From Raillietiella orientalis (lineage: Eukaryota): a stretch of DNA of 64,000 nt. Position 1 is the stretch's first letter. The number at the start of each line of letters is the position of its first letter. Positions 21,070 to 25,444 of the stretch are shown piece by piece. Location of the stretch: contig JAYWIR010000016.1 in NCBI GenBank assembly GCA_036172245.1, forward strand, positions 2,542,001 through 2,606,000. The letters run 5' to 3'. The notes below the pieces were generated by a model. It was not told the DNA's origin. It worked only from the letters and a program-made list of their open reading frames with translations, and made no database searches. Made by a program: the position numbers and the translations under genes.

Positions 21070-21171
21070 GCGAGCGTCGCGTCTTCGCTTTAGCGACTGC
21101 TCCGAATCTCCGAAAAAATTATGCGCTAGGTATGTCTTGATATCCATACCTCTCGAACACGTGGTTCAAGT
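21070..21171 (-). pseudogene. RNU11: 5'-truncated U11 snRNA copy (about nt 29 to the end), joined directly to the 3' end of a Tx1-like retrotransposon
   Basis: Minus strand ACTTGAACCACGTGTTCGAGAGGTATGGATATCAAGACATACCTAGCGCATAATTTTTTCGG... is about 85% identical by eye to 25416-25315. It lacks the 5' AAAAAGGGC end. Confidence 0.8.
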
Positions 21172-24100
21172 TTTCCCCAGTCCGACCAGCGGTGGGGTGG
21201 ATTTATTGAGCAAGCAAGAAACATGCAAACAAAAGACACTTTCACTTCGACCATTGCTCGGTCGGTCTCCTTCGTGGCTTTGCGGCCCTCGCGGGCAAGT
21301 CACTGTACCGTTCTGGCGGCGCACTGGGCTATCCTTAAGCAGAGCTGGAGGGTGCAAGATGGCACTCCTCCGCACCTATCAATGACGATTTCTCTGATCA
21401 GAAGTCCTTGCAGGATATATCTGGCGTTGCAGGTGCTGCCCATCGTCAGCTTCGTCCTCCTGATGAGAATGCTCCTCAGAAAGAAGGCGACGATCATCCG
21501 CACGGTGGGATTGTAGTGGGGCACGCCGCCGTCTTCGCTCTCCAACAGTCCCCGGAGGATTTCCAGACACGAGGTGTTGCCCAAACCGATGGCTCGCCGC
21601 ACCACTTTCCAGTCCCGGATAAGGGTGCGGCAAGTGTACATGTGCATGTTGTTTTCGGTCGATCCGCAAGCCGGACACTGGTCGTCGTCGGGGTTCCCGG
21701 TCCAGCGTCGGAATCCCGCACAGGATGCCTCCTTGATAAAACATCAGGAGGCAATCCTGAACTTCCGGCGGTAGAGGGGGCCTCCAGAGCACCGTCGCGA
21801 TGGCCTGCGGGTTGACTCCCGGTTCGCCGAACCTGGCCCGGATCGTGCTCAGCGCTTCTTCCGCGGTGACTGCGGCCAGCATCTGGAAGTTATCGGCTCG
21901 GGCATCACTCTGGAACACTGCGCTCCCTGGGCTTGCCAGAGCTCGCGAGCCCTGTGGGTTACCCAGCCTTGCATCGAGCGCTTGTTCGCCAGGACTCGCA
22001 CCGCTTGGATGACTCCGCTGGTGTCTAGTCGCCCGCAGTCTCTTAGAGTCACGTCGCCTTGTCGACGCAGCCAAATGAGCGTTTTCCAAGGGACCCGGAT
22101 GAACCATGGGATCACCTTGACGAGCTTCCTGTCCCATAATTCCCTGCTTCGCGGGACGATCTTTAGCTTCAGCTCCATCACGAGACTATGGAGCCTCGGC
22201 CAAGCGGAGTCGACGACTTTCCACTGCCAGGGTTTGTGCAACATGGCGGACACGAGACCGTCGCTTTCCAGCAGCATCCTCGCGTACGCCCTGTGAAACG
22301 CGAACGGCCATTCGTTCCAATGGCTGACGTAGCGGGCGAGCAGCTTAAGGTTCTAAAACTTCACAGAATGCGAGATTTCCCGCATGCCGGTGCATCCTTC
22401 GGTCCTCGGGGGACACAGGTTTTCCCTCTTCACTTTTAGTCTTCTCCCATTCCATAGCGAATCACGCTGGATGTTGGCGAGTTCCTTGGCCACCCTCTCC
22501 GGGATCTTATCGAAGGACGTGGCAAAGAGAAACTTCTTCGCGATCGCTCCGTTCCAGAGGTTGGCTTTGCCTCGAAAGGAGAGGTTCATCCCCCTGTACA
22601 GGTGGGTTTGCTACCTCAGCTTGGCGAGGATATCTTACCATTGCGTGTCGTCCGCCGTGTCTTCCTCTCCGATCGTAACCCTCAAGCATTTGACTCTGTG
22701 CACGATGCGGAAACCGTGGGGGCATAGGACGTTGACGTCCGGGTTCCCAACGGCCAGCAGACAGGATTTCTTCGGATTCACCTTCAATCCTAGTCCGTGC
22801 TCCATGGCATCCAGGATATCGAGGAACGCCTCTTGATCCCATTTGTCGGACATGACAAACAGGAGATTGTCGGCGTAGGCCAGTTACGTGATCGTGTCGG
22901 GTTCTTCTCGATCCAGGGTGATGTCCTTGAGCCACCGCTCGTTGGTCACGAGGGCAGCCACCGCTTCCATGTATATGACGAATAGCATGGGGCTGAGGAC
23001 ATCTCCCTGGCGCACTCCTCTTTCCATTTTAATGTCTTCCGTCGTCAGTCCGTTCACGTGCAGCCGAAAATGGGCTGCTTCCAGGATGCGCTCGACGTGC
23101 TGCAGGAATTTCCGTTGAAAGCCCATCTTACGGAGGATACTCGTCAGCATGCCGTGATCAACCGAATCGAAAGCCTTCTCAATGTCAGCGAGCGCGAGTA
23201 CCAGGTCGTTGCTTAGGATGCTGTTGCAACCCAGCAGGGATCAGGAGCTCTTGTTGTCCCACATGCACCTGCCGGACACGACGCACGTCTGGCTGGGCGC
23301 AATCAACGATTTCAAGGTCCTCTTCAGCCTGTTTGCCCAGATCTTGGCCATCCACTTCGCATCCGAGTTGAGGACGGAAATGGATCTCCACTGGTTGACG
23401 GTGCGGAGGTCGTCGCCGCTCTTCGTGAGCAGCCGCATCCTGCCTCGGTGGAAGGAGGCGGGCGGTCGATTTTCCCTGGCGACGCAGTCCAGCAGCTGGA
23501 GGAATAGGCACAGGCAGGCGGACAGGAAGCGCCGGTAGTGCGTGACGGGCACGCCGCCCGGACCTCGCCAAGGGAGAATTCCACGTCCATTTCCGCGATT
23601 TCTCGGGAGCTCAGGTGCTTGTTCACGCTGCGTAGGATTCGTTGCTGAGCTCTCGGCTCCAGGATTCTCTTTTGAAACAGGTCGGTGTAATGTCGCCTGA
23701 AGAATTCCAGAACCTCCTCCGATGATCGGCACTTTCGGCCGTCGTGGTGGACGTAGAAGATTTCGGTCTGGTGGTTGTTCTTCTCCAGCCGTGCGATATC
23801 CTTCTTGAGCCTGCCATCTAGAAAGCGTCTCTGGTACTCTTGCCAGTACTTGGAGTGAGAGAGATGTCGATGGACGGTCTCCCCGTACGCCTCCTCGCAT
23901 AGTACTCTGTCGCCGTACTGCACGTTAGCGAACACGTGGATCATGTGCTTGAGGACATCCCAGTCGTCCACGAGCTCGATTGTAGTCGTGGACATGATGG
24001 TCTCGACGACGCGCTGGTAAGCGGGGTAGCAGGCGAATTACTCGAACATGCAGAGGAGTGCTGCCCGGGGCTCCGCGTGCTCCCTCCTAGGATTCCTCGC

Positions 24101-25290
24101 CTGCATCCGGAACTTCAGCAGGAAATGGTCCGAGAGCCCGGTGTTCAGCTCCCGGATCCCCTGGATGCGGTTATGGAGGGCCCACGAGTGCAGGACGTAG
24201 TCGATCGGCGTCAAGTTCGCCCGGTGTACGCGAGGGCGAGGGCGACGGCCAGCCGCCGGTAGGCATTGGCTCCACCCATTTCGTTCGGTCGGTCGTCTTC
24301 CCAGCTCATGTTCAGATCACCCACCAGGATGAGAACGTACTTCGCCATGATCTGGCTCTTGACGAGGTCCACAAGGGTCCTCGCGAAGGTTCCCTTCCGG
24401 TTGCGCGGTCCGTAGACGTTCACCACGAACACGGAGACTTTGCGCAGCGTCTGCTCGATGTTCCCATTGAACATCTGAAGTGGCCCCCGGTGCTCATGAA
24501 CACCTCCACCCTTCCCTTAAAATGGCAGGAGTCGGCTCTACTGTCCTGCCACTTGAGGGGGAGGGTGGATGCATCTCTAAATAACGGGGGCCACTCTAGG
24601 TCATCCGCCGGGATGCCAAGCAGCTCTCGCCCCATCTTCGTATACCACGAGGGTGAACGCTTGGGGTCGCGGCGTCTGCCAGTTCCCTCATGGTCCACCC
24701 GCTTAGATCCTTCTCCTTGCCCGCTATCCGGCAGGAGACTTGCCACCTCGGCTTCCGGCTGTTATGAAGCGCCCTTCTCAGGAAGGGCAGCGCCGTGGCC
24801 AGTGGGGTCGTCTCCGCCCACGTGCTTCTGGCAGTGCCCTCGATCATGTTCCGCAGCGTGCAGCGGGTGTAGATGCCGGGACGCAGGCGGTTGCAGGATT
24901 CTCCTCCACTAGGCTGGTTTAGCTTCGCCCACGTGCCAACTGTTTCTTCCGGCCATGCGCTGGAGTTGGCGGGGTTGCAGGCCATCCACCCGTCCTCCTT
25001 AGCCAGGGACGCCATGCGTCCAAGGAGCAGGCCGCATCTTCGAATCTTAAACGTCCCGGCGAAACCCGGGTGAAAATCGGCAGCCGCACTGCCCGTGGGG
25101 GAGGCCGCTGCGTGGTGTCCGAAGGACGTGCATCCCCTACAAAAGTCGAGCTGCTGCCGGGAGGAGGTCACCCGCAGCGGCTGCGTGGCACGTTGGTCGC
25201 GGTTCCGTAGGACGCCGTGAGGGAGGTTGACGTTCCACGCAGCCCCCCTGCGGGCGGTTCGTAGGGGAGCATCGGCACCCCCAACACATT
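21172..25290 (-). mobile_element. Degenerate L1/Tx1-clade non-LTR retrotransposon (ORF1 zinc-knuckle remnant, APE endonuclease, RT, C-terminal region, 3' UTR with AATAAA)
   Basis: Knuckle CRGCTSFGHHAAASP (~25150). EN motifs VVNVYGP, LVGDLN, SDHF. RT motifs WRSISVLNSDAKWMAKIWANRL, DIEKAFDSVDH, GVRQGDVLSPMLF, AYADNL (preceded by an in-frame stop). Several frameshifts. 3' end AATAAATCCACCCCACCGCTGGTCGGACTGGGGAAA. Confidence 0.9.
24479..24595. repeat. ~117-nt imperfect palindrome (MITE-like hairpin) inside the retrotransposon
   Basis: AGTGGCCCCCG...CGGGGGCCACT termini, and inner TCCACCCTTCCCTTAAAATGGCAGGA pairing with TCCTGCCACTTGAGGGGGAGGGTGGA. Confidence 0.75.
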
Positions 25291-25313
25291 GCCTTCCTTT
25301 CGCACGGTGAACG

Positions 25314-25444
25314 TCGGGGCGTCGCGTTTTCGCTACAGCAACTTCCCCGATCCTCCAAAAAAATTATGCGCTAGGTATGTCTTGATGTCCATACCTCTGG
25401 AACGCGTGGTTCCAGTGCCACTAGGTAGACAAACGCCCTTTTTT
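25314..25444 (-). ncRNA. RNU11: U11 minor-spliceosomal snRNA, full length (~131 nt)
   Basis: Minus strand AAAAAAGGGCGTTTGTCTACCTAGTGGCAC-TGGAACCACGCGTTCCAG-AGGTATGGACATCAAGACATACCT-AGCGCATAATTTTTTTGG-...CGGGG...GCCCCG. Carries the recalled U11 hallmarks: 5' AAAAAGGGC (pairs with the U12-type 5' splice site), AGTGGCAC, loop GACATCAAGA, Sm site GCATAATTTTTTGG and a terminal stem-loop. Confidence 0.88.

Follow-up and report, generated by a model that had tools for sequence, protein, structure and literature searches.

Elements associated with snRNA genes

Site-specific long interspersed nuclear elements (LINEs) usually survive by targeting multicopy genes such as ribosomal DNA (rDNA) or the U2, 5S or tRNA arrays. 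Here, we describe a locus of Raillietiella orientalis where a decayed LINE is enclosed by two copies of the gene for the small nuclear RNA (snRNA) U11, a complete one upstream and a 5'-truncated one downstream. The gene for U11, an RNA of the minor spliceosome, has a low copy number. The locus comes from a 64-kb stretch of genomic DNA, hereinafter the window, which was analysed as a whole (assembly GCA_036172245.1, contig JAYWIR010000016.1, positions 2,542,001 to 2,606,000 of the forward strand). All coordinates refer to the window, and, as the whole arrangement is on the minus strand, upstream means higher numbers.

As of 2015, the snRNA-targeting elements listed in the relevant section of PMC4640811 were Keno and Utopia in U2, Dada-U1 in U1, and Dada-U6 in U6; that list gives no LINE for U1. 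In addition, heads derived from U1 and U2 have been reported on Tx1-Mar families, and template switching and co-transcription are discussed in the corresponding part of PMC4494074. We found no mention of U11 in PMC4494074, PMC4640811 or PMC8869645, and no report of U11-targeting elements in the full-text literature searched, with Repbase Reports and most subscription journals lying outside it.

The closest described systems each share some features with this locus. Like the LINE in the window, the U2-specific Keno and Utopia sit in the sense orientation inside a spliceosomal snRNA gene. Keno, a member of the Tx1 clade, has an endonuclease of the apurinic (APE) type, as the window LINE may also have had, whereas the endonuclease of Utopia is restriction-like. 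However, both interrupt the gene with duplications of 0-20 bp, while in the window a whole U11 precedes the LINE; moreover, the target here would be U11 rather than U2, with the specificity resting on one copy. In the U1/U2 heads of Tx1-Mar and SINEU and in the U6/L1 chimeras, as presented in the corresponding part of PMC4494074, a full snRNA lies directly 5' of the LINE in the same orientation, as in the window. What sets the window apart from these heads and chimeras is the gene-like 3' flank motif after U11 and the fact that the 3' end of the LINE adjoins the same kind of snRNA.

R2 and R1 are likewise found in the sense orientation inside an RNA gene, where read-through from the host promoter is possible (passage in PMC4494074 citing Eickbush 2000 and Fujimoto 2004). 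In the window, co-transcription is hypothetical, and any read-through would have to escape 3'-box termination. The promoters of snRNA genes are coupled to this kind of termination. Finally, the element R9, which Gladyshev and Arkhipova reportedly described in 2009 from the 28S rDNA of bdelloid rotifers, is said to create a target-site duplication of exceptional length, reportedly 126 bp (study cited in PMC5035012). As a site-specific element without long terminal repeats (non-LTR) that is flanked by a duplication of ~100 bp or longer, R9 resembles the window in layout. It has a restriction-like endonuclease, however, and the differences between the repeats of the window argue against a duplication made on insertion.

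Two U11 copies and their flanks

Only two Rfam matches were obtained in the whole window, both to U11 and both on the minus strand. The order on this strand is a complete U11 (25443-25315), a decayed LINE extending down to 21172, and a 5'-truncated U11 (21171-21070). The original prediction had described the same arrangement, namely an intact U11 followed in the same orientation by a LINE and by U11 from nucleotide (nt) ~28/29, and the combination of Rfam, repeat and profile mapping bears it out. The features of the U11 copies and their surroundings are as follows.

25444..25543, minus strand: region upstream of the complete U11 (100 nt), presumed snRNA promoter with a putative proximal sequence element (sequence reading)
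25315..25443, minus strand: complete copy of the U11 snRNA gene (RF00548, 80.9 bits, E 5e-13, model positions 1-134)
25270..25314, minus strand: 3' flank of the complete U11, purine-rich AAAGGAAGGCAA, with AAGGCAA at 25295-25289 (sequence comparison)
21070..21171, minus strand: 5'-truncated copy of U11, from nt 28/29 to the 3' end (RF00548, 47.6 bits, model positions 24-134)
21025..21069, minus strand: 3' flank of the truncated U11, with AAGGCAA at 21054-21048 (sequence comparison)
20300..26900, no strand: GC-rich island without CpG depletion that encloses the whole arrangement (GC content and observed/expected CpG ratio)

Both copies are thus recognized by the Rfam U11 model, as the original prediction had proposed to check, with a gathering score of 39 bits for RF00548. 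In the covariance-model alignment, the complete U11 carries the 5' AAAAAGGG, the AUCAAGA loop and the Sm site. It is probably an independent, working gene, and we infer that it is expressed. The truncated U11 is a fragment rather than a gene: the AUCAAGA loop and the Sm site are intact, the 5' end is missing, and the covariance model marks it as cut at the 5' side (scored as 21173-21070). The base A at 21171 can be assigned either to the LINE tail or to U11 nt 28. Apart from the truncation, the fragment is little decayed, with 47.6 bits vs. 54.2 bits for the corresponding nt 26-129 of the intact U11 when scored alone.

The downstream match was also reported as 21244-21070, with the LINE 3' UTR forced onto the U11 5' end over a long insertion. 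With this 5' extension, the score is 47.0 bits, compared to 47.6 bits without it, and the extension is an artefact of the global model. Since it adds nothing to the score, the downstream U11 really begins at nt 28/29.

The two copies form a direct repeat of 98 nt (21074-21171 and 25319-25416, 87% identical), which is the sole long repeat within 19000-28000. Over the range of alignments, the truncated U11 is 84-87% identical to the complete one.

Past the U11 3' end, the two copies cease to resemble each other, bar one positioned 7-mer. This 7-mer, AAGGCAA, is found 15-19 nt past both U11 3' ends, and a match so positioned arose in 331 of 20000 shuffles. For the 45-nt flanks, the local alignment score was equalled in 212 of 2000 shuffles, and the 300-nt flanks align no better than chance, as 478 of 500 shuffles reach their score. 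The similar 3' flanks claimed originally are therefore reduced to the positioned AAGGCAA, while the wider flanks match at chance level. The core consensus of the mammalian snRNA 3' box is AAARNNAGA (passage on the 3' box in PMC9006982). The purine-rich AAAGGAAGGCAA stretch with AAGGCAA matches this core loosely, the consensus being a mammalian one, and is a possible 3'-box-like signal.

We searched the region between the two copies for what the downstream copy lacks, and found no trace of it. For a remnant of U11 nt 1-30, the best score in this region was reached by 292 of 300 shuffles, and the one match appeared only with up to three mismatches allowed. For a copy of the 100-nt upstream (promoter) region, the best local alignment between the U11 parts was reached by 142 of 300 shuffles.

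Differences between the U11 copies

Over the 101 aligned positions of the shared U11 part, the copies show 16 differences. Of the 27 Rfam consensus pairs within this part, the upstream U11 has 24 as standard pairs and the downstream one 23. Two-sided changes preserve two pairs (G-C to U-G in stem-loop II, G-C to A-U in the 3' stem-loop), a one-sided change preserves another (U-G to C-G), and one pair is gained (A.G to C-G). The two pairs that are broken both belong to the apical helix of the 3' stem-loop. By comparison, 16 random substitutions break 4.5-5.7 pairs on average. Under random substitution, the probability of at most two broken pairs is 0.03-0.11, the probability of at least two pairs kept by two-sided changes is 0.02-0.03, and the joint probability is 0.003-0.008.

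The structure-preserving differences, together with the diverged flanks, fit two old U11 lineages that would have evolved under structural constraint. Where snRNA repeats flank an element, compensatory differences should be checked before a target duplication is called.

The LINE between the copies

The region between the two U11 copies contains one minus-strand LINE. Three of its ten open reading frame (ORF) fragments match the Pfam domain RVT_1 (best E 1e-11, 45.4 bits against a cut-off of 29.6). The domains were mapped further with a profile built from 30 long homologues, where the match strength is given as E or as the independent E-value (i-E). Repeat and profile searches found this one LINE copy within the window. 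Its parts, including the reverse transcriptase (RT) and the 3' untranslated region (UTR), are as follows.

24741..25269, minus strand: GC-rich stretch (GC 0.62-0.67) between the U11 flank and ORF2, either a remnant of the LINE 5' UTR/ORF1 or old spacer
21300..24740, minus strand: decayed LINE ORF2 (profile mapping and RVT_1; the start at ~24740 is extrapolated from the profile)
24453-24268, minus strand: endonuclease remnant of ORF2 (profile positions 96-157 only, i-E 4.2e-05)
23788-23549, minus strand: linker of ORF2 (profile)
23564-22293, minus strand: RT of ORF2 (profile, E 3e-93)
21692-21537, minus strand: C-terminal zinc finger of ORF2, weak match (profile, i-E 0.028)
21302-21300, minus strand: stop codon of ORF2 (translation)
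21172..21299, minus strand: LINE 3' UTR with AATAAA at 21207-21202 and a short A tail at 21174-21171/2 (sequence reading)

The 3' end of the LINE is GGGGAAAA at 21171/21172, with an A4 tail, and directly adjoins U11 nt 28/29. The 3' hairpin of the original prediction did not survive comparison with shuffled sequences, as the fold of the 3' UTR has a z of +0.24 and an equally good or better fold was obtained in 112 of 200 shuffles. For the endonuclease, the fragments gave no Pfam Exo_endo_phos match, and an SDH motif was read by eye in the ORF at 24038-24316. The C-terminal zinc finger is visible in the translation as a CX2C...HX4C pattern, with no Pfam match.

The extrapolated ORF2 start lies ~565 nt past the end of the complete U11. 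ORF1 homology was sought in 25450-24401, with no Pfam match and no significant tblastx match to the loci of 79 relatives (see below). The zinc knuckle that had been assigned to ORF1 comes down to one CX2CX4HX4S pattern at 25141-25100, which has no Pfam match and a best tblastx match to the ORF1 of relatives at E 0.023.

Because of seven internal in-frame stops in the 766 codons of 23600-21303 and of shifts in the reading frame between the endonuclease, linker and RT in the profile mapping, this LINE copy is dead and inactive. Despite the seven stops, the part from the RT to the ORF2 end (23600-21303, minus strand) keeps one net frame over 2.3 kb, and ~21850-21745 reads better in another frame by eye. 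The decay of this part is mostly through point substitution.

Two other repeats involve the LINE. An inverted repeat of 52 nt (24479-24530 and 24544-24595, 73% complementary, with a 13-nt spacer) is located where the N-terminal part of the endonuclease is expected, and may be a rearrangement that helped kill this copy. In addition, 46 nt of the LINE C-terminal region (21714-21759) match, at 89%, an AT-rich stretch 16 kb off (38136-38180), where the LINE profile did not find a second copy.

Classification and relatives of the LINE

Homologues of the LINE share the endonuclease, RVT_1 and zf-RVT architecture, and the best solved relative is human L1 ORF2p (E 1.4e-34), with R2 at 2.5e-19. On these grounds we place the LINE in the L1/Tx1 group. 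The RT tree comprises 74 rows, two of the initial 76 having been dropped as they had fewer than 250 filled columns, and has no named Tx1 reference; the window RT forms a long branch (1.41) and falls in no well-supported group. What stands of the Tx1-like element of the original prediction is thus a LINE of the L1/Tx1 group with a putative endonuclease remnant, an RT and AATAAA, for which Tx1 is one possible clade.

An exhaustive search of 1.84 billion representative proteins yielded none with more than 36% identity to the LINE, and word-indexed protein searches found nothing above 35%. The nearest named proteins come from an alga, a turtle and plants (29-36% identity). The tblastn searches with the top homologues matched only the RT.

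For comparison, we used 79 metagenome loci encoding distant relatives of the LINE (23-34% identity). Rfam gathering scans and blastn-short found U11 in none of them (0/79). In one locus, L008, the 5' end of a U1 snRNA gene is interrupted by an intact LINE, and 15 bp are duplicated (489-506 and 6094-6146). This LINE carries ORF1 (730-2259) with a CCHC knuckle and ORF2 (2214-5819) with Exo_endo_phos, RVT_1 and zf-RVT, and 226 nt upstream there is a complete U2 gene. In L045, which comes from another metagenome, two LINE copies are arranged in tandem with the same U1 piece between them (3590-3650). Together, L008 and L045 look like a U1-specific LINE family, and the wider relatives therefore include site-specific dwellers of snRNA genes. 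In the tree, L008 and the window RT are not close neighbours. In another locus, L073, the 3' end of a LINE from the plant-like branch adjoins (TTTAGGG)n telomere-type repeats at ~5850-5940, and this LINE is possibly a telomere-repeat-specific element.

Origin of the arrangement

We tentatively favour a history, one that could well be correct, in which there were two old copies of the U11 gene and the LINE was inserted in the downstream one, with the 5' junction lost. The upstream U11 would then not be half of a target duplication. The two genes would have been arranged head to tail, and the downstream one would have been entered in the sense orientation by an endonuclease-type LINE of the L1/Tx1 group through target-primed reverse transcription, so that the short A tail of the LINE was joined to U11 nt 28/29. 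The interrupted U11 would have lost its promoter and nt 1-27 and, along with them, the LINE most of its 5' part. This could have happened at insertion, through 5' truncation and a target deletion, or afterwards, through a deletion that spanned the 5' junction. After insertion, the LINE would have decayed and become inactive. While the anatomy, the decay and the structure-preserving U11 differences are observed, the order of events and the deletion are what we infer.

Besides the anatomy, the structure-preserving differences, the slight decay of the truncated U11 and the absence of nt 1-30 and of a promoter between the copies, two observations fit this history. The presence of AAGGCAA after both U11 ends, in otherwise unrelated flanks, is what would be expected of two diverged genes that each retained a 3'-end signal. 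The ORF2 start ~565 nt past U11, with no ORF1 homology detected there, fits the loss of the LINE 5' part.

Several points weigh against it. We have a single locus, and a tandem U11 gene pair in Raillietiella orientalis is an assumption. An extra deletion is required, which would have to end, by chance, shortly past the 3' flank of the upstream gene. That the LINE landed in U11 at all, at the non-A/T-rich site GGCA|CTGG, is not explained by this history; such a target hints at a nicking preference that is not L1-like. There is also a mild tension between the LINE, with its seven stops in 766 codons, and the 102-nt truncated U11, which is barely damaged. An element-borne upstream part would lessen this tension, as would a LINE copy that was already defective on insertion. 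Finally, the pair statistic was picked after viewing the data and compares two sequences only, and it supersedes an earlier count based on minimum-free-energy structures, which gave two broken terminal pairs and omitted the apical 2-bp helix.

Rather unlikely, in our estimate, is that the upstream U11 part was brought in by the element. In this case, the RNA of the LINE family would begin with U11 sequence and the U11 3' flank, gained by promoter read-through or 5' transduction. Priming would take place at nt 28/29, the cDNA end would pair with the U11 5' part of the target itself, and each insertion would rebuild a complete U11 upstream and leave the 3' part of the target downstream. Such insertion yields the exact layout with no extra deletion, including the same orientation of the LINE and U11, and accounts for the lack of nt 1-27 and a promoter between the copies. 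It also accounts for the structure-preserving differences, as both parts would come from working genes. The necessary ingredients have precedents in R2 co-transcription with homology-aided 5' joining and in the U1/U2-derived Tx1 heads (corresponding part of PMC4494074), and a distant relative of the LINE occurs site-specifically in U1 genes. On the other hand, the element is represented by one decayed copy, with no second one within the window; the protein libraries hold no family member above 36% identity; U11 is found in none of the 79 loci of relatives; and the 565 nt after U11 show no detectable link to the element. How the very first of these arrangements arose would still have to be explained in some other way. 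An element-borne U11 part is no better supported than two old U11 paralogues.

A long target-site duplication is very unlikely. Here, nicks ~100-130 bp apart in one U11 would have duplicated the sequence from nt 28/29 to the 3' end, as in R9 of the rotifer 28S genes. The layout is as such a duplication gives, and the repeat has diverged by 13-16%, roughly on a par with the decay of the LINE. However, the differences between the U11 copies are not what would be left by the drift of a dead copy away from a live one, given the joint probability of 0.003-0.008, and the duplication would have to stop at the U11 3' end, with flanks that share one 7-mer alone. Because the differences preserve the structure and the flanks are unrelated, the target duplication of >100 bp suggested in the original prediction is disfavoured.

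We consider it highly improbable that the upstream U11 is derived from RNA, the LINE reverse transcriptase having jumped from the LINE RNA to the U11 snRNA. Such template switching is known for L1 (U6/L1) and has been proposed for the Tx1-mobilised SINEU (corresponding part of PMC4494074), and a chimera of this kind would explain both why the homology of the copies ends at the U11 3' end and why the LINE apparently has no 5' part. Yet the positioned AAGGCAA, common to both copies, points to a gene flank and not to the LINE, and a chance landing in U11 with no second nt 1-27 would be an unlikely coincidence. An assembly artefact wrongly joining two U11 loci and a LINE is barely credible, as both junctions are clean, with continuous base composition across them and no sign of collapse.

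Specificity for U11

A separate question is whether the LINE family specifically targets U11, which we regard as doubtful, though worth consideration. More speculative, and quite unlikely, is the combination of this specificity with an element-borne U11 part, such that the locus would be a fossil of a U11-specific Tx1-like LINE family whose own 5' end bore the U11 3' part with the 3'-end signal of U11, each insertion at nt 28/29 rebuilding a working U11. If this were true, a parasite could make use of the snRNA promoter through read-through, and occupy an essential, low-copy gene without destroying it. A family specialised on U11 would have to avoid harming the host, which a rebuilt upstream gene would allow. 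Both the target and the "repairing" design would be new among the site-specific LINEs. With one decayed insertion beside an intact U11, the locus is a lead rather than a demonstrated system.

Surroundings of the locus

The GC-rich island at 20300-26900 takes in both U11 copies and the LINE, plus unassigned flanks of 0.8-1.5 kb. The GC content is 0.50-0.67 inside the island, compared to 0.30-0.40 outside, and the observed/expected CpG ratio is 0.84-1.09 inside, compared to 0.48-0.54 in the AT-rich surroundings. It is possible that the region is unmethylated, or else that it arrived recently. The ORFs flanking the arrangement, 20542-21038 and 25618-26369, gave no convincing match to a protein family.

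Pieces of host genes are found elsewhere in the window. An open frame of 679 amino acids (7240-9279, plus strand) with a borderline RA-domain match is located within a block of 60% GC. There is also an exon of MRP-L28 (32270-32833, minus strand) and an exon of Roquin with the ROQ domain (52667-53260, plus strand, E 8e-30). A Protein Atlas search with the Roquin exon was uninformative (best score 0.80). Judging by its sequence, the window is animal DNA, and the Roquin exon is about equally distant (57-65% identity) from the Roquins of hemichordates, molluscs, brachiopods, ants and vertebrates.

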